IMG/VR virus record: IMGVR_UViG_3300012347_000137
Coordinates: 1-39,278 of that record
From: a virus
Taxonomy: Duplodnaviria; Caudoviricetes
Reading direction: 5' to 3' (one strand)
Length of the DNA: 39,278 bases
Made by a program: the position numbers and the translations under genes. Below the pieces are notes generated by a model. The model saw nothing but the letters and a program-made list of their open reading frames with translations. It was not told where the DNA came from and did not search any database. Below, piece after piece: positions 4,134 through 24,227 of the stretch (positions are counted from its first letter, which is position 1; each line of letters begins with the position of its first letter).

Positions 4134-4871
4134 ATGGCAGGTGCATTAACCGCAACCCAAATTGCCGCGCTGGCGGCGATGGTTGCTGGCTCTTACATGC
4201 AGTATCAAGCGAATACTGAGGCAGCAGACCGCCAGCAATCCGCAATCCGGCAAAGCCTTGACCGCCAAGCCGAATTGCAAAAGCAAGCCGAGAAGAAAGC
4301 GCTCGACACAGCTGGCAAGTTTGCGCCCGGCGACCGCGCCAAAGAACAGGCTGCGATTGAGGACCAAATCGCCACTGACTTGATGGCCCCGGTAAGCGAG
4401 AGCCAACAGATTCGAGCGCAACAGAGCACGACCCAAGGCGATGTGTCCAACGACTACTCAGACGCCAAGGCGGCGTCGACAGCGGCTTCGCTCAAGTCAG
4501 CCGAACAACTGGCCCGCTTGCTGGGTAAAACAACTTCGGCCAACCGCCTGCAAATGAATGAGGGCATCCGAATGCTCGATTCTGGCCAAGCGATTGACCA
4601 GCTCAACAGCTTCTCGCGTGGCCAACAAGCTGCCGACCAAATCGGCATCCAAGTTGCTGGTCGACCAGATGCCGAAAAGGTTTTCATGGGTAGCCTGCTA
4701 TCAACCGCAGGAAGCGCCGGGATGATGTACGGCGGCGGTGGTACCGGAAGCGTCACACCCGCGCAAGCAAATGCAGCAAACGCAACGGCTGACCCCATTG
4801 CCTCACTCAATGCCCAAAAGGGCTGGACAGGTGGCAACGATTCTTGGTTAAGCGCATTCCTCAAGAGGTAA
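4134..4871 (+). CDS. Internal virion / ejection protein (T7 gp14-like)
   Basis: 245 aa with hydrophobic Ala-rich N-terminus, Gln/Ala coiled coil and Gly/Ser-rich C-terminus. RBS AGGAG upstream. Confidence 0.6.
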   Translation: MAGALTATQIAALAAMVAGSYMQYQANTEAADRQQSAIRQSLDRQAELQKQAEKKALDTAGKFAPGDRAKEQAAIEDQIATDLMAPVSESQQIRAQQSTTQGDVSNDYSDAKAASTAASLKSAEQLARLLGKTTSANRLQMNEGIRMLDSGQAIDQLNSFSRGQQAADQIGIQVAGRPDAEKVFMGSLLSTAGSAGMMYGGGGTGSVTPAQANAANATADPIASLNAQKGWTGGNDSWLSAFLKR

Positions 4872-6229: not shown

Positions 6230-9200
6230 ATGGCCTTACGAGAGTTCGACGGGAAACTTGACGAAACCCCCAAGTTAAAAGAGTTCACCGGGAACCTCGA
6301 TGGCGATGGCCAAAGCTCCGTGCTTGGTGACGCTGGCGCTGCAATCAAATCGCTTTTTTCGCCCAAGCCTGAGAGCGTGATGGAAGGTTTGCCGCCAAAC
6401 CCGGCAGCCTTCGACTTCTCCACTGCAAGCCGTTTGTCGCGCAAGCTCGATGACAACGCGCAGCGCCAAAAAGACTTTGGCACCATTGGACCGATTGTTG
6501 GCCCCAAGCCTTCAACAATGAGCATCATCAATGGCTTGTTCACCGACGTGGTGGCAGGCGGTAAGGCGGCACGCGCAGGTATCAACCAAATGGCTGGCGA
6601 CATGGCTGGCTCTGAGTACCTGCAAGACAAGGCACGACGCGAGCGTGGCCAAGCCGACTTGATGACGGCGGTAAATACCCCTGATTTTGAGAGTGACACA
6701 GCGCGAGCCGTTTATGGTGGCTTGTCAAGCACTGCCCGCATGGTGCCTTCGCTGGCGGCTGCCATCGTCACCAAAAACCCTGAGCTTGCGCTTGGTGGCA
6801 TGGTGGCACCGATGGTGCCGGATGCTTATGGCAAATATCGCCAGCGTGGAGCAACGCCCGGCGAGGCTTTGCCCGCAGCAGTGGGCGAGGCAGGCATCGA
6901 ATATTTCACCGAGAAAATGCCAATGGGCTTCTTGGTGAAAAACTTTGGCAAGGTTGGTGCGACCAAGATGATTACGGGATTCATCGCACGCGATGCGTTG
7001 CCCGAACAAGTGGCCACACTCACACAAGACGCCATCGACACGGCAGTGGCAAACCCCGACAAGACATGGGGCGAGTACATGGCCGAGCGCCCCGGCGCTG
7101 CCTATCAAACATTGGTGGCAACTGGCACACAAGCTGGCTTGATGGGTGGAGCCAATGCAGCAATGAACCGACTGTCACGCAGTCAAGCACCAGCACAATC
7201 AACAGAGCCAACCGCTGCCGATTACCAAGCAGCCGTGCAGAAAATCTTTGGCACTGGCCAAGCACCAACAGCGCCAGTGCAGCAATCGCCCGTATCGCAG
7301 CCACAAGCCGCTCAAATCACCCCAGTGTTACCAGCGCCCCAAGAAGTCGAACAAGCGCCCCAGCAGGCCATTCAATCATTGGCCCAGCTCATCACAAGCA
7401 CGGCCACCCAAGACAGCCCGCTCAATGTGCCCAAGCTCACACCCGTGGCCGACGACATTAAGCTCGACACGGAGACCCAAGCCAATGGCGCAGAAAATGT
7501 TTTACAGCCCGTGGATTCAAATGCCGTTGGAGCAGGGACACTTGACCCAGCAGCAGGCGTGGAATCTGTGCAACGAGTTCTCGATACCGGGAAACTGGAC
7601 ATCACAGGAAATGCAGCAACTGAGCCAACGGTGCGCACTGCACCACTGGAACCCGCTGGACAATTACCAGAGCAAATCGCACCTGCAACAGAGCAACCCG
7701 CTGCCAATGTAGCGGCACCAGTTACGCAGCCTGCCACCTTGGTGGCTACCGAGGCAGGGGCCGGGGGTGCCCAGCCGTTGCAGGCTGCATCTACACCAAC
7801 ACCCAAGGCATTGACTGGCTACATTGGCCAAGACGGCACCAGCATCGACGATGGTGGCACGCCATTCAAATCCAAGCTGGAAGCACAAAAAGCCAAGAAG
7901 CTGCAACCCATGATGCGCGTCAAGCAAGTGGTTGGCGGCTTTGTGCTTGCTGACAAGACGCCCGCGCAGCTTGCCGCCGAGGAAAAGGCAGCCAAGCGAA
8001 TTCGTGGTGCCAACGCAGAAGCAGGCTCAAAGGGCAAGCCAATGGCCGCGCACGAGTTCATTGCATCGCGTGGCGGCATGGCCCCAAGTGAGCGCTCAGA
8101 CCTTGGCATTGAGGGCAATGTGAAAATCGGCAACCGCTGGCTCTTTGCAGGCAAGGGCAAAGGCATGACCATTGCGCAGGCCACCGAAGCGCTGCAAGAG
8201 GCTGGCTATCTCAAAGAAGACAGCCACAACGCAGCGTATGACTTAATCAAGCGCAGCGTCAGCAATCCCCAATACACCGACGAAGGCTGGGAAGGCGTCG
8301 CAGAGCTTGAGCGACAAACCCAGTTTGAAGACTACTTGGCGCAACAGAATGAGGCCGAAGACGCACTGGGTCCATTGGATGCGTCCGACTACACTGGCGA
8401 CACAGGTTATGAACCTGCAAGCGAGGAACTGCAAGCAGAAGTCCGAGCACTGATTGAACAGCTCGAAGCCGCTGGCATTGATTCTGAATTGCTGATGGAT
8501 GAAGCGGTACGCGAAAACGTAAATAAGTCAGACGAGGAATACTATGACAGCGCAAAACAAAAACTCACAAATGCCCTCACACAAAATGCTCGAAGCGGCA
8601 GCAATGAACCAAATGGCGGAAATGCTCAAGGGCGACAAGGGCAAGAAACCGTCGATGGAAGCCGCGCAGATAGCGGCCAAGTTGATGGCCAACCGAGCAA
8701 TGCGGGACCAACAAGCGAAGTTGGCCAAGAAAGCCCCGACCAAGGGCTGACCAGCTACACGCCTCAAGAAATTGAGGACCGCTTGGCCAAGCTCGAACAG
8801 GCCGAGCAAGAACGCAAACGCCTAGACCGCGAGGCAGAACAAAACGCCAAGGCAGAGCGCGAGGCAAAAGACATTGCCGACCGTCAGCGTGCCAGCTCAG
8901 ACAACTTTCAGCTTGGCCAAAGCGCCGAAGATTCATTGTCGGGCCAGCAAGATATTTTCAGCGCCCCGGCACAAGAAGAAGCGCAGGCAGAGCCAGCGCC
9001 AGAAGCGACGCCAGCAGCACCATCCAAGCCAGCACGCAAACGCAAAGAGAGCACCGCAGAATTACGCGCCAAACTCGAAGACCACTTCGCAGTGGGCAAC
9101 ATCATCAAGAGCGACTATTGGAAAACCAACAGCCGCGTCATATCTTTTGACTGGAATGGCGGCAACTGGTCCGTGACCGTTGAAGGCGTTGGCAAGCGTG

Positions 9201-12200
9201 ATGGCGAATGGGTTTCTGCATCATCGCCGCGCACGCACTCGACTATGTTCTCAGCCAAAGACGAAGTGGTTGAGCGCGGCATCAAGCCAGAGGCACCAGC
9301 CGAAACAGCAGCCGAAGCACAAAACAAAATCGCAGACTTTGGCCAGAAGATTGGTGGCGCACGCAAAGACGTGTGGACTTCATTCAAGGACCAACTTGGC
9401 GAAGTCGTGGACGACGACATTGCATTGCAACCACTTTCCAAAGTTTGGCCACAACCAGACTATCAAGCATTGCTCGATGGCGGCACAGACCCTTGGACCG
9501 TGGCATTCATTCGCGCAGCACGCGACGAAATCCCAGCCAAGCCACGCCAGAGCTACAAGGTCAAGCGCTGGGCCGAGCAAGTAAAGACGCTTCGCTCTTT
9601 CGCCAACTTACTCATGGGCGAAAAAGAATCCGAAACAGGCACAGCCAAAAAGTTCATTGAGAAGTCGCAAACCATCAAACCACTCTTGGGACGCGTCGAG
9701 CTTTATTTGGAAGTCGGCCACGGCAAATCGCTCGATGGCATCACCATGCAGGAAAACTTCTATTCGCTCTACGCGGGTGAGAAGAACGTGACCAAGTGGG
9801 TGATTGAACAAAAGACGAAATCAAGTTCATTTGGTAGCTGGCCGCGCTCAGTTGCCGCAGGCAATACCAAAGAAGAAGTCGTCGCCAAGTTCAAAGCGCT
9901 CTATGAGGGTTTGGCCAGTAAGGACGACGCCAAGAAGCAAGTCACCTTCGATATTTATTCAAAGCACCGTGTCGATGGCTTCTTCGTTGGCAAGAAGCTA
10001 GGCCGCAATTACATCGACTTGGCCGGGCCATTCACCACGGTCAAAGAGGCACGCACCTACAAAGCCGAAAGCCAAGCCGAGTTGGTGGACAAGTTGGAGA
10101 AGGCAAAAGAAATCCCACGCGAGCGCCGCGACATGAACGAGCCACGCGTTGGTGAAGACATGCGCAATGGCCAAGACGTGACGCCACAAATGTTTGGCGC
10201 TGCCTTTGGTTTCCGTGGTGTTGAGTTTGGCAACTGGGTGGAGCAAGGCAGACGCCAACAAGATTTGAATGACGCATTCGACGCGCTCATGGACATGGCC
10301 GCAGTGTTGAACATTCCGGCCAAAGCAATCTCATTGAATGGCGAGCTTGGCCTTGCATTTGGTGCGCGTGGTAGCGGTGGCGTAAGCCCTGCCGCTGCAC
10401 ACTATGAGCGCGACAAGGTGGTGATTAACCTCACCAAGAAAAATGGCGCTGGCAGTCTTGGCCATGAATGGTGGCACGCACTCGACAACTACTTCTCACG
10501 CAAGCGTAACAAAGCCGACGGCATGATGACAGACGCCCTCGATGTGAAGCTCGCTTCAACTGGTAGCAAGTATTTGTATCAAGACAAAGGTGTGCGCAAA
10601 GAAATGGTGGACGCTTATGGCGTCGTGATGAAGGCGATTAACTCGACGGCCATCAAGGCACGCTCTGCACAACTCGACGGAAAGCGCAGCAAAGACTACT
10701 GGACCACCGACGTGGAAATGTCGGCACGCGCCTTTGAGAGTTATTTGATTGCAAAGCTGCAAGACCAAAACGCATCAAACGATTACTTGGCCAACATCGT
10801 TGACCCTGAAACTTGGGATGCGATGGCAGCGCTTGGAATGCAGCTTGATGAAAGCTACCCCTACCCAACAGCGGGAGAAATCCCAGCAATTCGCGCCGGG
10901 TTTGATGAGTTCTTTAAGACAACGGAAAACCGCGAGACTGACAAAGGCGTTGAGATTTACAGCGCCAGCAATGGCAAGCCCGTCAATATTTCTGAGCGCT
11001 TAACCCCGTCGGCGATTGAAGAAGAAATCGGCTATGCGCTCGCGAAGTTCGCGCATAAACCCGTAATTCGGGTGCTTGATACTGCGGTCGGGGTACTTCC
11101 GGGGGCAAGCGATAGTGATGGAATTTCCGGAGCTTTGCACGACTCCAGCATTTATCTTTTCCGTGATTTCCTCCATAGTCGAACCGAAGTACAACGGACG
11201 TTTTTCCATGAAATGCTCCACTATGGCTTGCGCCGATTTTTGACCAAAGACCAGTTTATAACCCAAATGAGCAAGCTCTACGAGCGAGACAGCTACATCA
11301 AAAAAGATGCAGACGCTTGGGTTCAAACCGAAGTTGGACAACGCACAAAGGCGACGTATGGCGAGGCATACGCAAAAGCGCGTGGCGTTGATGAAGCCTT
11401 GGCTATCTTTGCAGAGGAAAACCGCAGCGGCACGCTAGACAAACCCGTGCTTGAGCGCGTGCGCTCTGTGATGACCAAGTGGCTGGCACAACTGGCTGAC
11501 TTCTTTGGTTTCAAGCAATATGCTGCCGACTTGCGTTCCGTAAAAAATGATGAAGCCCACGCGCTCATCAACGAAATTTTCGGCAAGATGGAGGTGGACG
11601 CATCGCCAGCCATCGACGCTTGGAATGACATGCAAGACGTGCCATTCTCAATGAGGGGCGAAGAACAGCAGGCAGACCAAGCCGAATTGGACCTTGGCCA
11701 ACCCGCTCGCAACTTCGAGCCTATCAACGTCAAAGACGCATTCAGTCGTGAGGTGGATGCCAGCGGGCGAAAGCAGTATGTGCTTGGCCGAAAGCTCTAC
11801 GACCGGATGGCAACCTATGCCACGGACTACTTGGGACGGGCAAAGCTGGCCGACAACCGACCAACTGAGTTCAAGCAGATGATGCGTCAATTCCGTGTGG
11901 ACCAGAACAAGGCCACCGAAAGCGCAAAGGCCATTGCAGAGAAGGGCATGGACTTGACGCCAGAGCAACGCGTGCTCTTGTCAGACATGATTGAGAACCA
12001 AGTCAAAGTGGCTGACGTGCCACCACAAGAAATGGTGGAGCTGGCCGCGTCAATCACTGCGGCTTTGGAAACACAAGCCAATGAGTTGGTTGAGCTTGGC
12101 ATGTTGTCCGAAGAACGCTTGGTCAAAGACTACCTGCCGCGCCTATACAAGACGCCACTCATTGCCCAACTGAGCAACAAGCAAATGTTTATGTCGTGGT

Positions 12201-14071
12201 TCACCAAAACCCGCATGAAGATTCGCGGCGCTCGCTTGCAATCACGCGGCTTGGTCAATGAAGTGCCGATTGAAAAGGTCAAGCTGGCCGAGAAATTCGG
12301 TTGGAAGGTTTCGAGTTTGGCCGATGGTGACAACCTGCCGCAAAACTTGTTGGACGTGCTCAATTCGGGCGGCAAGATTCCAGCGAAATACAACGGCACC
12401 AAGATTGTCATGTGGCGCGACTTCACCGAGAGCGAGCGGCAGGACATGGGCGAAGTGCGCGACGCGGTGTTGCGCTATGCAATGGGGTATGTTGAAACTC
12501 AGCGTGACGTGGCCATTGGCCGCTTGTTCAAGTCCGTGGCCAACAATCCCGACTTGGCCAAGACGTACAACCCCGGCGGCTGGGTGCAGGTGCCCAACGT
12601 CGAAATCAAAGGCGCACCCGGCACCAAGACCTATGGCGCACTGGCTGGCATGTACGTCGAGCCACAAGTGGCCGATTCACTCAAGCGCAACACCCAACCC
12701 AAGGGTGTGCTCATGGCGGCATACGACAAGGCGCTTGGCTGGTGGAAAGAAGGCAAGACCGTTTGGAACCCAGTTAGCCACGGCAACAACGTGGTGAGCA
12801 ACGTGTTCGTGATGCACTTCGCTGGCTTGAACCCGGCCAACCCTGCCAACTGGCGCAACACTGTGCGCGAATACCGCACCAAGGGCCAGTATTACAAAGA
12901 GGCGGTGGACAAAGGCTTGTTCGGTACCGAGTGGGCAACGATGGAAATTCAAAACTTGCTCATGCCCGACTTGGCAGATATGGCCGACATGGAGAGCGTG
13001 GCAAGTTCGCGCTTTTCTAAGATGGCCGAATTCCTGAAAAAGACAGGCAAGCCCGTGAGCTGGTACCGCGAGAACATGCAGCGAGCCTATGAGTTCGAAG
13101 ACCAGTTCTTCAAGTTGATGATTTACGCTGACCGTCGCAAAGCAGGCATGACGCCAGAGCAAGCCATCGAAGACACCGAGCGCTATATCTTCAACTACGC
13201 AGACATGCCAGAAGGTGTGGAGAACATTAAGCGGATTTACAGCCCATTTTTCTCATACACCTACAAAGCCGTGCCGATGGTGATTCACACGGCCATGCAC
13301 CATCCCGACCGCTTAATTGCGCCCATTGCTTTGCTCGCTGGTGCCAACTGGCTGGGCTACCTTATCAGCGGTGGCGACGAAGACAAAGAGCGCAAGGGAT
13401 TGCCGGACTACATGCAAGGCCGCTCTGCCATTGGTACCCAAAAAGCAGTGCGGATGCCGTTCAACGTCGAAGGCAAACCAGCCTTCATGGATGTGACGCG
13501 ACGCGTGCCGCTGGGTGACTTGTTCGACGTGAACAACCAAACCAATGGCCTGCCAGTGCCAGCGCCTTTGATGCCTTCGCATCCATTGCTTTCAATGACC
13601 GCGGCTATTGCATGGAACGTGGACACATTCAGCGGCAAGGACTTGGTGAAGAAGTCAGACACGCCTTGGGAGGCAGCGCAAATCCGTGCTGGCTACATTT
13701 ACAAGCAGCTCACGCCCAACGCTCCATTTGTGCCGGGAAGCTACAACTTCAACAAGCTCATGGATTCGGCGGCATACACCTTTGACACCGAGTTTGGACC
13801 GTACACCGGGCGCACCAAGGCAGGCGACCCAGTGCCACTTTCCACAACGCTGCCCGACGTGTTGACTGGTACCAAGATTCGAGCCGTGGACCCTGAGCGC
13901 GGCATCGAGTACAAGCGTGCCGACATCGCAAAAGAAGAACGCGAAATCCGCGCCAACATGCGAAGCGCAAACCGCAACCAGTCAATGACAAACGACAGTC
14001 GCGAGCGCTACAACCAAGAGCAACGCGACAAGCTCGACACACTGCGAACCAAGCGCGGCGAGCTGCAATAA
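6230..14071 (+). CDS. Large polyvalent internal virion protein (LPD-type domains, two zincin-like HExxH motifs, LPD38-like C-terminus)
   Basis: 2,613 aa. Motifs DFGQKIGGARKD, FGFRGVEFGNW...LAFGARG...HEWWHALD, YW..EMSARAFE, FFHEMLHYG, PFFSY...LPDYM. Last gene of the ejection cluster. Confidence 0.75.
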   Translation: MALREFDGKLDETPKLKEFTGNLDGDGQSSVLGDAGAAIKSLFSPKPESVMEGLPPNPAAFDFSTASRLSRKLDDNAQRQKDFGTIGPIVGPKPSTMSIINGLFTDVVAGGKAARAGINQMAGDMAGSEYLQDKARRERGQADLMTAVNTPDFESDTARAVYGGLSSTARMVPSLAAAIVTKNPELALGGMVAPMVPDAYGKYRQRGATPGEALPAAVGEAGIEYFTEKMPMGFLVKNFGKVGATKMITGFIARDALPEQVATLTQDAIDTAVANPDKTWGEYMAERPGAAYQTLVATGTQAGLMGGANAAMNRLSRSQAPAQSTEPTAADYQAAVQKIFGTGQAPTAPVQQSPVSQPQAAQITPVLPAPQEVEQAPQQAIQSLAQLITSTATQDSPLNVPKLTPVADDIKLDTETQANGAENVLQPVDSNAVGAGTLDPAAGVESVQRVLDTGKLDITGNAATEPTVRTAPLEPAGQLPEQIAPATEQPAANVAAPVTQPATLVATEAGAGGAQPLQAASTPTPKALTGYIGQDGTSIDDGGTPFKSKLEAQKAKKLQPMMRVKQVVGGFVLADKTPAQLAAEEKAAKRIRGANAEAGSKGKPMAAHEFIASRGGMAPSERSDLGIEGNVKIGNRWLFAGKGKGMTIAQATEALQEAGYLKEDSHNAAYDLIKRSVSNPQYTDEGWEGVAELERQTQFEDYLAQQNEAEDALGPLDASDYTGDTGYEPASEELQAEVRALIEQLEAAGIDSELLMDEAVRENVNKSDEEYYDSAKQKLTNALTQNARSGSNEPNGGNAQGRQGQETVDGSRADSGQVDGQPSNAGPTSEVGQESPDQGLTSYTPQEIEDRLAKLEQAEQERKRLDREAEQNAKAEREAKDIADRQRASSDNFQLGQSAEDSLSGQQDIFSAPAQEEAQAEPAPEATPAAPSKPARKRKESTAELRAKLEDHFAVGNIIKSDYWKTNSRVISFDWNGGNWSVTVEGVGKRDGEWVSASSPRTHSTMFSAKDEVVERGIKPEAPAETAAEAQNKIADFGQKIGGARKDVWTSFKDQLGEVVDDDIALQPLSKVWPQPDYQALLDGGTDPWTVAFIRAARDEIPAKPRQSYKVKRWAEQVKTLRSFANLLMGEKESETGTAKKFIEKSQTIKPLLGRVELYLEVGHGKSLDGITMQENFYSLYAGEKNVTKWVIEQKTKSSSFGSWPRSVAAGNTKEEVVAKFKALYEGLASKDDAKKQVTFDIYSKHRVDGFFVGKKLGRNYIDLAGPFTTVKEARTYKAESQAELVDKLEKAKEIPRERRDMNEPRVGEDMRNGQDVTPQMFGAAFGFRGVEFGNWVEQGRRQQDLNDAFDALMDMAAVLNIPAKAISLNGELGLAFGARGSGGVSPAAAHYERDKVVINLTKKNGAGSLGHEWWHALDNYFSRKRNKADGMMTDALDVKLASTGSKYLYQDKGVRKEMVDAYGVVMKAINSTAIKARSAQLDGKRSKDYWTTDVEMSARAFESYLIAKLQDQNASNDYLANIVDPETWDAMAALGMQLDESYPYPTAGEIPAIRAGFDEFFKTTENRETDKGVEIYSASNGKPVNISERLTPSAIEEEIGYALAKFAHKPVIRVLDTAVGVLPGASDSDGISGALHDSSIYLFRDFLHSRTEVQRTFFHEMLHYGLRRFLTKDQFITQMSKLYERDSYIKKDADAWVQTEVGQRTKATYGEAYAKARGVDEALAIFAEENRSGTLDKPVLERVRSVMTKWLAQLADFFGFKQYAADLRSVKNDEAHALINEIFGKMEVDASPAIDAWNDMQDVPFSMRGEEQQADQAELDLGQPARNFEPINVKDAFSREVDASGRKQYVLGRKLYDRMATYATDYLGRAKLADNRPTEFKQMMRQFRVDQNKATESAKAIAEKGMDLTPEQRVLLSDMIENQVKVADVPPQEMVELAASITAALETQANELVELGMLSEERLVKDYLPRLYKTPLIAQLSNKQMFMSWFTKTRMKIRGARLQSRGLVNEVPIEKVKLAEKFGWKVSSLADGDNLPQNLLDVLNSGGKIPAKYNGTKIVMWRDFTESERQDMGEVRDAVLRYAMGYVETQRDVAIGRLFKSVANNPDLAKTYNPGGWVQVPNVEIKGAPGTKTYGALAGMYVEPQVADSLKRNTQPKGVLMAAYDKALGWWKEGKTVWNPVSHGNNVVSNVFVMHFAGLNPANPANWRNTVREYRTKGQYYKEAVDKGLFGTEWATMEIQNLLMPDLADMADMESVASSRFSKMAEFLKKTGKPVSWYRENMQRAYEFEDQFFKLMIYADRRKAGMTPEQAIEDTERYIFNYADMPEGVENIKRIYSPFFSYTYKAVPMVIHTAMHHPDRLIAPIALLAGANWLGYLISGGDEDKERKGLPDYMQGRSAIGTQKAVRMPFNVEGKPAFMDVTRRVPLGDLFDVNNQTNGLPVPAPLMPSHPLLSMTAAIAWNVDTFSGKDLVKKSDTPWEAAQIRAGYIYKQLTPNAPFVPGSYNFNKLMDSAAYTFDTEFGPYTGRTKAGDPVPLSTTLPDVLTGTKIRAVDPERGIEYKRADIAKEEREIRANMRSANRNQSMTNDSRERYNQEQRDKLDTLRTKRGELQ

Positions 14072-14124: not shown

Positions 14125-14595
14125 ATGAGCGCGATTCTTTCTTTTTTGGGTGGTGCGGCTTTCCGCATGATTTGGGGGCAAGTTGCTGCCGTTTGGACAA
14201 ACGCACAAGACCACAAACATGAGCAAGCCATGCTCGCCTTGCAAGCCGAGTTGGATGACAAACGCCACGCACGCGACTGCGAGCGAATCCGCCTGCAAGC
14301 AGAGCTAGGCGTCAAAGAGGTGATGGTGCAAGCCGACGCCGACATTGCCCGCATCGAGGCCAATGCCTTTTTACTGTCAAGCAGCCGGGCCACTGAGAAG
14401 ACTGGAATTTGGCTAGTCGATTTGTGGAATGGGTCCATTCGCCCGGCAGCCGCATCAATCGCACTTTACCTTTGGGTGGTGGCGCTCAATACCGCTGGCT
14501 GGGTGATGACCGATTGGGACCGTCAGCTTGTTGGCGTCGTCATTGGCTTCTATTTCGCTTCACGCGTGTTGACCCGTGACCAACGAGCAAGCTGA
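14125..14595 (+). CDS. Holin-like membrane protein
   Basis: 156 aa with N-terminal hydrophobic segment, coiled coil, and IRP followed by two TM segments ending GFYFASR. Overlaps the endolysin start. RBS GGAGG. Confidence 0.65.
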   Translation: MSAILSFLGGAAFRMIWGQVAAVWTNAQDHKHEQAMLALQAELDDKRHARDCERIRLQAELGVKEVMVQADADIARIEANAFLLSSSRATEKTGIWLVDLWNGSIRPAAASIALYLWVVALNTAGWVMTDWDRQLVGVVIGFYFASRVLTRDQRAS

Positions 14596-15007
14596 CTTGG
14601 CCGCGCTCTACGCGCTGATTCGCACCTTTGAAGGGTGCAAGCTGGTGCCGTACTTGTGCCCGGCTGGCGTGTGGACGTGTGGCTGGGGTTCAACTGGCCC
14701 CGACGTTTTCCCCGGCAGGGCATGGACCCAAGAGTATGCCGACCAGCGAATGCGAATGGACGCACTCAAATTTGCACGCGGAACGCTTGCACTTTGCCCA
14801 AACCTCAAAGGCGACCGACTAAGCGCCATTGCTGACTTTGCCTACAACGTGGGGCTTGGTGCCTTGATGGCGTCAACGCTCCGTCGGGTTGTCAATGCTG
14901 GCGCTTGGGACCAAGCAAAAACTCAACTCATGCGCTGGGTGCGTGGCGGTGGCCGCGTGCTGCCCGGCCTAGTTAAACGCAGGACTGCCGAATCGAATTT
15001 GCTCTGA
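14576..15007 (+). CDS. Endolysin, GH24 lysozyme
   Basis: FEG-x-L-x-PYLCPAGVWTCGWGST catalytic region, FAYNVG motif, C-terminal LPGLVKRR. Confidence 0.93.
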   Translation: MTNEQADLAALYALIRTFEGCKLVPYLCPAGVWTCGWGSTGPDVFPGRAWTQEYADQRMRMDALKFARGTLALCPNLKGDRLSAIADFAYNVGLGALMASTLRRVVNAGAWDQAKTQLMRWVRGGGRVLPGLVKRRTAESNLL

Positions 15008-15013
15008 CACCGC

Positions 15014-15144
15014 CACCATTACCGTGAAGTCCACACGGCGCACCAAGGCGGCAATATTGGTGCGGGAGACCTTACCGTGACGGCCACGGATGGATGGTGC
15101 CGATAGCGCAGCCCCCAGCCCCACAAGGGTAGTCGTATGGGGGC
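15014..15144. ncRNA. Candidate structured element downstream of endolysin
   Basis: CACCAT/ATGGTG encloses three hairpins, two sharing TTACCGTGA...CACGG, followed by a GCCCCCA/TGGGGGC hairpin. No ORF. Confidence 0.35.
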
Positions 15145-15193
15145 ACCTTTTCGCCCAAAATCATTTCCGCATCTACTGCCAGCACCCTAGTAA

Positions 15194-15206
15194 AATCAAC
15201 GGCTTA
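15194..15206 (+). promoter_or_regulatory. IHF binding site
   Basis: AATCAACGGCTTA matches WATCAANNNNTTR. Confidence 0.75.
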
Positions 15207-15247
15207 GAGTATGCAAAAGACAGTGAGTTGCGGAAATGAAATTACTG

Positions 15248-15260
15248 TAAGGTGTTGATT
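15248..15260 (-). promoter_or_regulatory. IHF binding site
   Basis: Reverse complement AATCAACACCTTA matches WATCAANNNNTTR. Confidence 0.75.
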
Positions 15261-15394
15261 TTTATGATAAACACGGAAGACTTGAAAGCCGGTGCATTGG
15301 TTGGCGAAGCCAGTATTCATGCGGGTTTCAGCAAATCGTTTCCGCAACTTGCGGAAATCGTTTCCGCAACCCGTAGAATTTGAGTAATGTTTTT

Positions 15395-15484
15395 GGAAGC
15401 GTGTCCGAGCGGTTTAAGGAACTGGTCTTGAAAACCAGCGAGGGTGTGAGCCCTCCGTGAGTTCGAATCTCACCGCTTCCGCCA
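15395..15484 (+). tRNA. trnS: tRNA-Ser (anticodon TGA)
   Basis: GGAAGCG/CGCTTCC acceptor stem, CTGGT-CTTGAAA-ACCAG anticodon arm, long variable arm, GTTCGAATC T loop, discriminator G and encoded CCA. 90 nt. Confidence 0.97.
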
Positions 15485-15489
15485 AATGC

Positions 15490-15520
15490 AAAAAGGGCTC
15501 CACACGGAGCCCTTTTTCTT
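15490..15520. terminator. Bidirectional rho-independent terminator between tRNA and integrase
   Basis: AAAAAGGGCTCC-ACAC-GGAGCCCTTTTT. Confidence 0.9.
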
Positions 15521-15536
15521 GACTGGGTTTTGATTG

Positions 15537-16598
15537 TCAGCGTGTCGGCTGGACCACCTCACCGACCCGGCGATATACCTTCTCAGTGATTTCTTGCTCA
15601 GTGTGGCCAAGCAACTTGCTTGCGTGCTCAAGCGGCAATTCGGATGCAGCCTTCGGGCGAATGTCGCGGAATTGGAAATCCTTAATGCTCTTGGCCAACT
15701 CCAACTGCCCGGCTTCTGTGGCTACCTTGATGGCGGCTTCACGGGCATCGTCAAAGCGCGTGCGCAGCGTCCACTTGTTGAGTGCCACCCCGCTTCGTGT
15801 GGCAATGAGAAAGAGGCTGGCCACCTTGCGGTCGCGCGCGCGGATTCGGTCAATCACGCGGCCCAGCTCTGAGCGCACACCGTTTTGCTCAAGCATGATG
15901 CGCAGGCGCTTCTTGGTCTTGTTCTGGCGCACCTCAAGCGCACCGTCCTTAATGTCGGTGAGCATCATTTTCAGCACGTCGGCTGGCCGCTGGCCCGTGA
16001 GGTAGTTCACGTCCATTGCGTCCTTGAGTTCGTCGCACGCGTGAGCATAGACGGCGGCCCAAATGGTGTCGTCGGCGTAGAAGTCGCGTGGCTTTTCTTT
16101 GTTCTTGCGCACGCCCTTTGCCGGGTTTTCCTTGGCGGTGTAACCCCATTCGCGGGCCATGTTGAAAACGTGCGAGAGCATGGAAATTTCACGGTTGGCT
16201 CGCACCGGTGCAGCGGCCCCGCGCTTGTCTCTGTATTGGGCAACGATTTGTGGAGTGATGGCCTCGATTGGGGCGGCATCAAACACGCGTCGCAGGTTCT
16301 TGATGCTGTCGAGATTGTCCTTCTGTGTGCGAGGCGCTTTGGCAGGTACAACGTCGCGCTCATAGCGGTCGAAAATAAAGCGCATGAGGCCCGTTTCGGC
16401 TGGCGCTTCTTTGCATTCCAGCTCTGCCCATTTGCGCTTGGCTTCGTTCAAGTCGTTGCCAAGTGGTATCTCAACGCGTTTGCCGTCGGCGTCGCGTCCG
16501 TTGTAGTAGAACGATTCCCAAACCTTTCCGCTTTTGAGCGTGCGCGAGCGGCGCAGCATACGCGGCGGCAGGTCTCGGTGGTTGGTTTTCGGTCTCAT
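15537..16598 (-). CDS. int: Tyrosine integrase
   Basis: 353 aa with LTGQR, QNKT, FRDIRPKA, LLGH and YRR catalytic motifs plus an N-terminal arm-binding region. Confidence 0.95.
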   Translation of the reverse strand: MRPKTNHRDLPPRMLRRSRTLKSGKVWESFYYNGRDADGKRVEIPLGNDLNEAKRKWAELECKEAPAETGLMRFIFDRYERDVVPAKAPRTQKDNLDSIKNLRRVFDAAPIEAITPQIVAQYRDKRGAAAPVRANREISMLSHVFNMAREWGYTAKENPAKGVRKNKEKPRDFYADDTIWAAVYAHACDELKDAMDVNYLTGQRPADVLKMMLTDIKDGALEVRQNKTKKRLRIMLEQNGVRSELGRVIDRIRARDRKVASLFLIATRSGVALNKWTLRTRFDDAREAAIKVATEAGQLELAKSIKDFQFRDIRPKAASELPLEHASKLLGHTEQEITEKVYRRVGEVVQPTR

Positions 16599-16605
16599 AA
16601 AGTCC

Positions 16606-16839
16606 TCAGCTTAATGCAGAAAAGTCGGGTTTCCAAGCGGCAGGTTGAATGCCGTTGGCCGTTGGGGTTATACCAGCCATGCGCATTCGTGCGTACCAGC
16701 GGCTCACGACGGGCCTGCCAGCGGCGTTGGTGACATAGGCCCAGCCTTTCTTGTCCAGCCATTCTTTCTGGCTGGCAATGTGCTTGTAGCCCGTCACTTC
16801 GCCCAGTTCGTCGGCGTTTAAGAATTCGGTATCAGGCAT
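16606..16839 (-). CDS. xis: Excisionase-like protein (DUF4224-type)
   Basis: 77 aa from ATG 16839, FLNADELGEVTGYK...QKEWL...GRPVV, immediately upstream of int. Confidence 0.8.
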   Translation of the reverse strand: MPDTEFLNADELGEVTGYKHIASQKEWLDKKGWAYVTNAAGRPVVSRWYARMRMAGITPTANGIQPAAWKPDFSALS

Positions 16840-23230: not shown

Positions 23231-23887
23231 TTATTTCTTTCGGTATTTGCGGTGCTCAACCATTGTGCCAACCACTTTGATGTGCTGAATATCTGAGCGC
23301 ATCGAGGCGAAATCTTCATTGAGCGGTACCAGCTCAAAAACAGTGACGCCATGCTCATTCACGCCACGGGGTCGGTACTTCTTGAACGTGGCTTCTTCTT
23401 CGCTGTTCTTGGCCACCACAAAGTCACCGGGCAGCGGTGCCACCAGAGGGTCAATGATTACCCGGTCGCCTTCTTTGAACTCAGGCAACATCGAATCACC
23501 CTTGATTTGCAGAGCGAAGGCGTGGTCCGACAACTCCAAGTCGGTGAGTAGCCAGTCATCGGCATCACCCGGTTGGAAATTGTCAACGATGCCAGTCCAA
23601 CACCCGGCCTGCACATAGCTGATAAGGGGAATACGCACTGCGCCAATGGAAGAAGGCGCGACGTTTTGCGTGCTGGCCAACATTGGACCTTCACCAGTAA
23701 TAAGCCAGCTCGCACGCACTCCAGTGGCAGCCTCAAACTTGACCGCGCTATTGGCTCGCAAGTTCTTGGTTTTGCCCGATAGAAGCTGCGACACGGCACT
23801 GTCAGACAAGCCAGTGTCAGCCGCCACTTGCGTGGGGCTTTTCTTCGCTACGGCGAGCGCTTCGGCTATACGGTTTTTAAGTTCCAT
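23231..23887 (-). CDS. cI: CI-like repressor (HTH + S24 peptidase)
   Basis: N-terminal HTH, VQAG cleavage site, GDSM serine motif, TFKK lysine motif. Confidence 0.95.
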   Translation of the reverse strand: MELKNRIAEALAVAKKSPTQVAADTGLSDSAVSQLLSGKTKNLRANSAVKFEAATGVRASWLITGEGPMLASTQNVAPSSIGAVRIPLISYVQAGCWTGIVDNFQPGDADDWLLTDLELSDHAFALQIKGDSMLPEFKEGDRVIIDPLVAPLPGDFVVAKNSEEEATFKKYRPRGVNEHGVTVFELVPLNEDFASMRSDIQHIKVVGTMVEHRKYRKK

Positions 23888-23895
23888 GTCTGAGA

Positions 23896-24012
23896 CTTTA
23901 GCACACTAAAGATTTAAGTGTGTTGAAGTTTTCACCTTTTTTTTAAGTGCCCTTGAATTCTCATCTTAAATGTGCTTAAAATGTGTATCGTCAATAGTTA
24001 AGCACACTTTAG
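23896..24012. promoter_or_regulatory. OR/PR/PRM: five 16-bp operators
   Basis: Sites at 23896-23911 (CTTTAG-CACA-CTAAAG), 23913-23928, 23942-23957, 23965-23980 and 23997-24012. Same consensus as OL. Confidence 0.75.
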
Positions 24013-24023
24013 GTAATTTCAAG

Positions 24024-24227
24024 ATGGAAACAAAAAAAGCGATAGAACTGGCAGGGTCGGCGACCTTGTTGGCCTCCATGCTGGGAATCACAGACAGCGC
24101 GGTGAGCCAGTGGGGAAAAACAATTCCAGACAGCCGCGTGTGGCAACTTCGTGTGTTGCGCCCTGAGTGGTTCTTGGCCAAGCCAGCCGCGACGGGTAAG
24201 CGTGCCACGGACAAGGTGGCCGGATGA
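24024..24227 (+). CDS. cro: Cro-like repressor
   Basis: 67 aa from ATG 24024. AIELAGSATLLASMLGITDSAVSQWG HTH, divergent from cI. Confidence 0.9.
   Translation: METKKAIELAGSATLLASMLGITDSAVSQWGKTIPDSRVWQLRVLRPEWFLAKPAATGKRATDKVAG

Follow-up and report, generated by a model that had tools for sequence, protein, structure and literature searches.

The window, 39,278 nt of viral DNA analysed here at its full length, contains a phage attachment site in which the seven-base anticodon loop of tRNA-Ser(TGA) is followed by a complete spare copy of that tRNA gene. We propose, with a probability of about 0.92, that the phage splits the single tRNA-Ser(TGA) gene of its host at the 7-bp anticodon loop and sets its own copy about 110 nt behind the host 5′ half, where the host promoter likely drives its transcription and its product likely sustains the lysogen. 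The window is one contig whose ends overlap by 55 nt, which indicates a circularly assembled genome, and it represents a temperate phage in its free form. Profile matches identified terminase, portal, major head, tail fibre and endolysin proteins, the endolysin gene (14576-15007, plus strand; PHROG 7, E 1e-44) marking the left boundary of the attP region. On the other side lie a tyrosine integrase of 353 aa (15537-16598, minus strand; PF00589, PF24624, PHROG 1) and an excisionase (16606-16839, minus strand; PHROG 4764, E 1e-24, DUF4224), and further on a CI-type repressor with HTH and S24 peptidase matches (23231-23887, minus strand) and, divergent from it, a Cro-like gene (23970-24227). The virion region also encodes a protein of 2613 aa (6230-14071) matching PHROG 616, a family of unknown function. 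The best-matching public runs for the window are freshwater metagenomes; in an independent freshwater run the left arm, core and tRNA are spanned by one record (X3 record 17, 14948-15483), and among the loose ends listed for DNA runs X1, X2, X3 and X5 none is a junction at the core.

An earlier note on this DNA had described the attachment site from the letters alone, and all its coordinates were confirmed when we inspected them again. CTTGAAA at 15281-15287 (plus strand) equals the anticodon loop of tRNA-Ser(TGA) at 15427-15433, and no tRNA 3′ half follows this first copy. ARAGORN called the intact tRNA-Ser(TGA) gene (15395-15484, plus strand, complete and with CCA encoded) in the same orientation, 107 nt behind the core. 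CTTGAAA is the only stretch identical between attP and attB and is the junction point in attL and attR of relatives. By itself the heptamer is weak evidence (P ~0.02 in shuffles of the intergenic region; 4 copies on the plus strand of the genome), and we consider the core real because of its fixed place in relatives and because it is the junction in prophages.

The arm-type and IHF sites claimed around the core are likewise there, as judged by repeat analysis and consensus match. Arm-type repeats TTTCCGCAW start at 15164, 15339 and 15361 and, reversed, at 15228 and 15349; elsewhere in the genome TTTCCGCA is found just once, at 14160. In the left arm, the site at 15164-15173 (plus strand, repeat family D2) lies at -117 from the core and the inverted site at 15227-15236 (minus strand, inverted repeats I5 and I6) at -53; both places are kept in 16 of 17 attP, at -116/-115 and -52, and recur in attR junctions. 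Three right-arm sites (15339 plus, 15349 minus, 15361 plus) fill 15339-15370, and 37 of the 38 att regions compared have right-arm sites at +58 and +80. The left arm also contains two IHF-like sites (15194-15206, plus strand; 15248-15260, minus strand), each an exact match to the IHF consensus WATCAANNNNTTR. Immediately after the core lies a putative core-type site C′, GCCGGTGCA (15288-15296, plus strand), the family consensus over 38 att regions; it mirrors the host half-site, which reads ACCGGTGCA outward, and the left core-type site C matches it poorly. The layout is that of a lambda-type attP, with arm repeats at fixed distances on both sides, IHF sites, inverted core-type sites and a 7-bp overlap, and it lacks the classical replacement fragment, there being no displaced tRNA half after 15287. 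By analogy with the biochemistry of lambda-type integrases, Int and IHF would bridge arm and core sites and exchange strands across the 7 bp, and Xis would reverse the reaction. In the gap between the tRNA and int, a hairpin with A and T runs (15490-15517, the 12-bp perfect inverted repeat I17) is likely a bidirectional terminator; it was not called in the terminator scan. Several variant sites were seen among relatives. In the attP-like site of L013 the left arm is 15 nt nearer the core than elsewhere in the family. Just downstream of int, L102 has an attP that lacks right arm and tRNA and in which the core runs into the terminator, either a natural deletion or an assembly artefact. In L170 the integrase is internally deleted (94 aa, 773-1054), whereas the attP next to it is intact and the tRNA-Ser(TGA) highly divergent.

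Integrase searches provided 71 genome loci and the best 80 of 139 viral loci; a further 21 viral and 14 metagenome loci came from scans for the att motif. A script found the window-like layout in 42 rows and, as L313 repeats L163, in 41 distinct regions, which we assigned by eye from the printed flanks to 17 attP, 21 attL and 3 other (L001, L163, L252). The earlier note had predicted an attL in which a host tRNA-Ser 5′ half is fused at CTTGAAA and followed by a phage tRNA, and prophages with homologous integrases bear this out in 21 distinct junctions, which are not independent of each other (7 stem types, some near-copies). Each attL reads host tRNA-Ser 5′ half, CTTGAAA, phage right arm with its sites at +58 and +80, full tRNA-Ser(TGA) and int. 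Hosts named in the record titles are Comamonas, Limnohabitans, Aquitalea, Thiobacillus, Sterolibacterium and Herminiimonas. Two attL come from the window's own lineage and carry the same tRNA as the window: L241 matches the window with 94.4% identity along 1574 nt that start at 15281, and L251 with 96.6% along 235 nt. The host flank of L251 matches a Limnohabitans-genus genome with an intact gene at 99.2% over 130 nt; the best match for that of L241 is 74%.

The other end of the prophage, attR, was found in 8 of the 13 attL-bearing records (G002-G007, G939, G940) and consists of phage left arm, CTTGAAA and an orphan host 3′ half, with neither a 5′ half nor a gene called by ARAGORN; it was not found in G001 and G057, which show attL only, or in the short or partial virus records G941-G943. 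Spans from attL to attR measure 37-43 kb, with 14.7 kb in G004 and two contigs in G007. When attL and attR were rejoined in silico, ARAGORN called a tRNA-Ser(TGA) in 6 of 6 pairs and in 0 of 12 single junctions, and the empty site in G049 matches the junction flanks of G006 at 59/60 and 75/75 nt. That integration breaks the host gene, as had been claimed, is borne out by the 21 attL and by the 8 records with an orphan 3′ half. In an ordinary integration the tRNA gene itself would be the att core and the upstream CTTGAAA a chance match, and remoter relatives (53-70% identity; L080, G010, G011) do integrate classically at the same tRNA. This reading is refuted by the junctions, which in 21 attL and 8 attR lie at the upstream CTTGAAA and never inside the phage tRNA, and we give it practically no chance of being right. 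Such lysogens are rare: an order-wide search for the attL motif matched 2 of 401 genomes, G006 and one with no tRNA behind the motif, and it was not exhaustive because it missed G007. One family-1 element, L001 (G009:C115), sits outside tRNA genes, with CTGCAAA as its junction and an ORF resembling a DNA glycosylase upstream, and still carries its tRNA-Ser(TGA).

In the lysogens G002-G007 a broad 3′-half pattern picked out the phage gene and the orphan at attR; all further matches were judged by eye not to be tRNAs. No intact tRNA-Ser(TGA) other than the phage gene turned up in these six genomes, four of them from cultured strains by title; all are drafts or MAGs, in which such a pattern search could miss a divergent gene. 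The cultured lysogens are C. sediminis JCM 31169, C. koreensis KCTC 12005, Limnohabitans MMS-10A-192 and A. palustris MWU14-2217. In samples of two genera the same pattern matched 60 of the 61 genomes from Comamonas and 66 of the 81 from Limnohabitans, nearly all once; the exceptions, judged by eye, are lysogens, G051 and G868, and atypical extra tRNA-like matches occur in G071 and G016. The latter (L201 in G071; G016:C2) are atypical tRNA-Ser(TGA)-like genes within tRNA clusters of two Comamonas genomes. The disrupted host tRNA is non-redundant by this pattern-based count over drafts, which covers the six lysogen and 142 genus-level genomes; BLAST with the tRNA missed known copies (0 matches in G794; the attR of G007) and was left out of the counts. 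The first step of the proposed mechanism can be followed in the sequences themselves, from the core of CTTGAAA only to both junctions, the empty site and the sole intact copy in six lysogens.

UCA codons are read by tRNA-Ser(UGA) only, and for this reason the phage gene should be both expressed and required in the cultured lysogens; by these decoding rules the phage copy is probably what an infected cell relies on. Were the tRNA instead an accessory gene for lytic growth or counter-defence, dispensable to the lysogen, an extra supply would be conceivable: of the 415 serine codons in 12 phage genes, 146 are UCA or UCG. The split host gene, the lack of any other intact copy found in the six lysogen genomes and the absence of such a spare from relatives that carry a 3′ half make this accessory role very improbable. 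Dependence of the lysogen on the phage copy offers one concrete answer to why single tRNA genes occur in temperate phages, and the culturable and harmless lysogens in Comamonas, Limnohabitans and Aquitalea make it directly testable.

In an alignment of 20 of the 23 distinct phage copies of the tRNA, 99.2% of the cells are paired and two-sided changes occur at 21 of 25 pairs, both far above slid controls, which indicates that the copies are under structural selection. They diverge over the whole molecule and not in one stem alone, and the anticodon loop is invariant. Orientation of the tRNA and its adjacency to the attP right arm are fixed in 37 of 38 att regions; in L139 about 540 nt are inserted between arm sites and tRNA, which places the tRNA 661 nt from the core. 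The stretch between arm sites and tRNA in L139 contains an opposite-strand ORF of 194 aa (4150-4734) with no Pfam match, and the phage backbone of L139 is unlike that of the window.

The earlier note had placed a plausible tRNA promoter in the right arm. Its two elements, TTGCGG at 15349 and TAGAAT at 15374-15379 (plus strand), are present; the promoter itself is weakly supported, with a spacing of 19 nt, a -10 hexamer that the family does not conserve, being confined to the sub-lineage of the window and a few other members, and 0 sites in a promoter scan of 14950-15650. A -10 pattern, TAn[A/C]AT, chosen after viewing the host leaders and covering the window's TAGAAT, matched all 59 host leaders at empty sites, 15 of the 21 host leaders at attL and 7 of the 38 distinct leaders of phage copies, for which shuffled sequence gives 4.2 +/- 1.9. 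As most spares have no -10 box, the simplest reading for the family would be that they capture the promoter of the host. Transcription from the host promoter would quite probably read through the orphan half and the right arm, followed by RNase P trimming, and no terminator-like site was called between core and tRNA on the plus strand. The window's sub-lineage may in addition have a weak promoter of its own.

The same destroy-and-replace event could be served by a right-arm promoter (TTGCGG...TAGAAT), as in Fionnbharth, the place beside attL then being incidental. In the window and in L072, L241 and L251 the distance from TAGAAT to the tRNA is 15 nt; L180 and L001 have similar hexamers 13-15 nt ahead of it, most host -10 boxes fall within 9-15 nt, and the tRNA of L139 stays at its distance from the core. 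Besides the empty promoter scan and the 19-nt spacer, the hexamer is absent from 31 of 38 leaders, including L129, L244 and L254 of the nearest sub-clade, and the gap between last arm site and tRNA, 3 to 26 nt in general and 538 in L139, shrinks to 3-6 nt in L183 and L172; with orientation and adjacency also fixed in 37 of 38, we regard a promoter of the phage's own as the less likely explanation. RNA runs, available as contigs only and so without start, strand or level, include a 109-nt contig in X15 over 15374-15482 with 4 differences and one in X16 over 15307-15370, and the left arm is uncovered in X15-X18. When the predicted attL transcript was folded, the phage cloverleaf was not recovered in 3 of 4 cases, the orphan 5′ end pairing with the phage 3′ end; minimum-energy folding is unreliable for tRNA precursors.

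The stem of the phage copy had been suggested to keep the integrase from using its own tRNA as attB, and this idea came through in part. Anticodon stems in the window's lineage are CCGGT/ACCGG in the host and CTGGT/ACCAG in the phage, and host and phage stems differ in 21 of 21 prophages; a CTGGT host stem nevertheless serves as attB for two relatives, L015 and L092. With a matrix built from 10 distinct C′ sites, the host half-site outscores that of the phage tRNA in 20 of 21 prophages and 12 of 13 distinct pairs, few lineages being represented and host B′ sites scoring low too. For the window's lineage the scores are 10.3 bits in the host and -2.7 bits in the phage, a contrast helped by a U10-A26 pair unique among 20 copies. 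Self-avoidance by recoded stems is plausible on these grounds, and we lean slightly towards a mechanism in which anticodon and D stems have been recoded away from the core-type site of the integrase, which would make the phage tRNA a poor attB.

Recoded stems might instead reflect the donor of the tRNA or escape from an anticodon nuclease. The divergence of phage copies over the whole molecule around an invariant loop would fit such an origin, as would the CTGGT and CTAGT stems in host genes that serve as attB and, in a second integrase family, the spare of G627, which has the same stem as its host. Self-avoidance is favoured by the 21 of 21 differences from the prophage's own host and by 7 of 9 phage stem types being unseen among host-type tRNA-Ser(TGA) genes in the fetched loci. 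In MAG G009, moreover, a second element has gone to the non-tRNA site CTGCAAA and left a left-over phage-type tRNA unused (one case, possibly a mixed bin). We hold the donor or nuclease explanation to be a serious one, at somewhat under even odds.

Some spares appear to have outlived their prophages. A yccA-linked locus in MAG G009 (L163, G009:C58) retains a decayed 5′ half, one arm site and a phage-type tRNA, with no integrase within about 19 kb, and in G022 (L197) the half is further decayed and stands ahead of a tRNA whose type is that of the prophage in G004. A host 5′ half with CTTGAAA and, after 9-20 nt, a full tRNA-Ser(TGA) was found in 7 of 401 genomes of G006's family and also in G038 and G003. 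Two of these genomes hold complete islands with an orphan 3′ half at attR (G687, 12.5 kb; G627, 15.8 kb), the attR of G596 is on another contig, and the integrase of G687 and G627 (Arm-DNA-bind_3) is 23% identical to that of the window (E 0.036). The same tRNA-Ser(TGA) is the target of a second integrase family, unrelated to the first, whose elements split the gene and bring in a complete replacement 9-20 nt behind the core. The loci of this family are L255-L261, L228, L305 and L306 (G687, G627, G596, G794, G779, G501, G724, G038), and the elements are satellite-like islands with primase or DUF3987 genes. G794, G779, G501, G724 and G038 have one copy, and neither an orphan 3′ half nor, in about 19 kb downstream, a match to either integrase was found in them; incomplete assembly could explain some of these loci, less so G794 (a 4.17-Mb contig of 4.5 Mb). 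The two families also stack at one core, in L065/L159 (G003) with two host-type 5′ halves in tandem and in L252 with the left arm of family 2 fused to the right arm of family 1. We had considered L252 as a non-tRNA site, which was ruled out when its left flank matched the left arm of the second family.

Decayed 5′ halves before element-type tRNAs with no integrase (L163, L197, L228, L255) are likely domesticated spares. Decay of such a prophage has to spare the tRNA, and it is fairly probable that the phage tRNA stays behind as the host's gene, which would be a route for replacing a core housekeeping gene from outside. More tentatively, at rather less than an even chance, the spare may be viewed as a promoterless, integrase-proof tRNA cassette that is switched on at integration and outlasts the prophage, with repeated events by at least two unrelated integrase families swapping an essential single-copy tRNA gene of Betaproteobacteria, leaving 5′-half scars in tRNA leaders and perhaps barring the site to the same phage family in later infections. 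Prophage finders that rely on a duplicated 3′ end would miss or mis-map such elements and count the phage tRNA as the host's.

The principle is known as tRNA-dependent lysogeny from actinobacteriophages, namely Fionnbharth (K4), Cluster L, Cain, Gaia and Gordonia CQ2/DL (Guerrero-Bustamante and Hatfull, 2024, PMC10865867). The features of it that can be sought in sequence, as given in the excerpts of that paper available to us, all occur in the window's lineage: a tyrosine integrase of a temperate phage, an attB overlapping a host tRNA gene, a short common core, no functional tRNA rebuilt at attL or attR and, by the pattern-based count over drafts, a host tRNA without a second copy. According to the same excerpts, the two systems share a lambda-type integrase with arm sites, a short core in the anticodon loop, a phage tRNA of the same isotype and close relatives that rebuild the gene (PMC10865867). 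They differ in the betaproteobacterial hosts, in the isotype (tRNA-Ser(TGA) here, Lys, Ile2 or Leu there) and in core length, 7 bp compared with 8-17 bp (PMC10865867). The spare of the window's family, known here from sequence alone, abuts the attP right arm and mostly lacks a -10 box, whereas the tRNA of Fionnbharth lies in gene 37 with a strong promoter of its own and that of Gaia downstream of int (PMC10865867, as excerpted).

Closer in host, Sinorhizobium meliloti prophages like Mesorhizobium phage vB_MloP_Lo5R7ANS replace tRNA-Leu (UAG) in two strains (PMC11476347, PMC12429752, both available in part). As in the window's family, the host is a proteobacterium, integration is mid-tRNA and a prophage copy of foreign origin acts as the replacement; these are, however, Alphaproteobacteria and a tRNA-Leu, and the accessible text includes the authors' suggestion that such replacement diversifies tRNA genes, and no account of att anatomy, promoters or relics (PMC11476347). 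The Lactobacillus johnsonii prophage Lj965, as cited in the part of PMC10865867 at hand, also rebuilds no tRNA at the junction and carries the cognate tRNA, in a Firmicute host. The VarioGold paper (PMC9658991) and a tycheposon preprint, in the parts accessible to us, describe ordinary partial-tRNA repeats. Our literature search, covering few subscription papers, returned nothing on the window's integrase clade, on promoter capture or on domesticated spares, and the experiments it located concern actinobacteria only. What is already known is the principle of tRNA-dependent lysogeny, which the present data extend to Betaproteobacteria with complete junction evidence; new are the host class, the isotype, a spare set against attP mostly without a -10 box, the differing stems, an unrelated integrase family at the same site and the decayed relics.

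The integrases place this family beside classical ones. In a quick IQ-TREE of 82 of 156 extracted integrases, without the rows lacking a readable att class and with midpoint root, SH-aLRT support and no bootstrap, 30 replace-type rows and one tRNA-deleted form make up one clade (31 rows, SH-aLRT 99), which adjoins relatives from Oxalobacteraceae and Pseudomonas with Ser, Cys or Leu tRNAs as their targets. The classical same-family integrases of these groups share the core CTTGAAA, the arm motif and an int convergent with the tRNA. Their attP carries the 3′ half and has right-arm sites about 150-160 nt from the core, as in L080 (core plus 3′ half, right-arm sites at +158), whereas in the window's clade right-arm sites lie about 58-80 nt from the core and the whole tRNA follows. 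With the midpoint root, the replace type looks derived, by loss of some 90 nt from the right arm and gain of a whole tRNA beyond the arm sites. This bears on the direction from 3′-half to whole-gene replacement, which the portion of the 2024 paper available to us leaves open (PMC10865867). Integrases 54-57% identical are found in Pseudomonas phages F10, LESphi2 and PA8, and INPHARED held no cultured phage integrase above 59% identity.

The 3′ half is duplicated in G010 and G011, and because of this duplication in G010 the Pseudomonas fluorescens-group case is classical; replacement upstream of the tRNA, which we had considered for that group, was ruled out on the same ground. The tRNA-Ser(TGA) sequence of the P. 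fluorescens group (L042-L054, L059, L062, L067) is unlike that of other pseudomonads, its leader is about 25-30 nt longer and contains a hairpin, and it is possibly an old replacement. The sister integrases L018, L021, L024, L025 and L004 target tRNA-Cys(GCA) or tRNA-Leu(TAA), whose loops are one or two bases off CTTGAAA.
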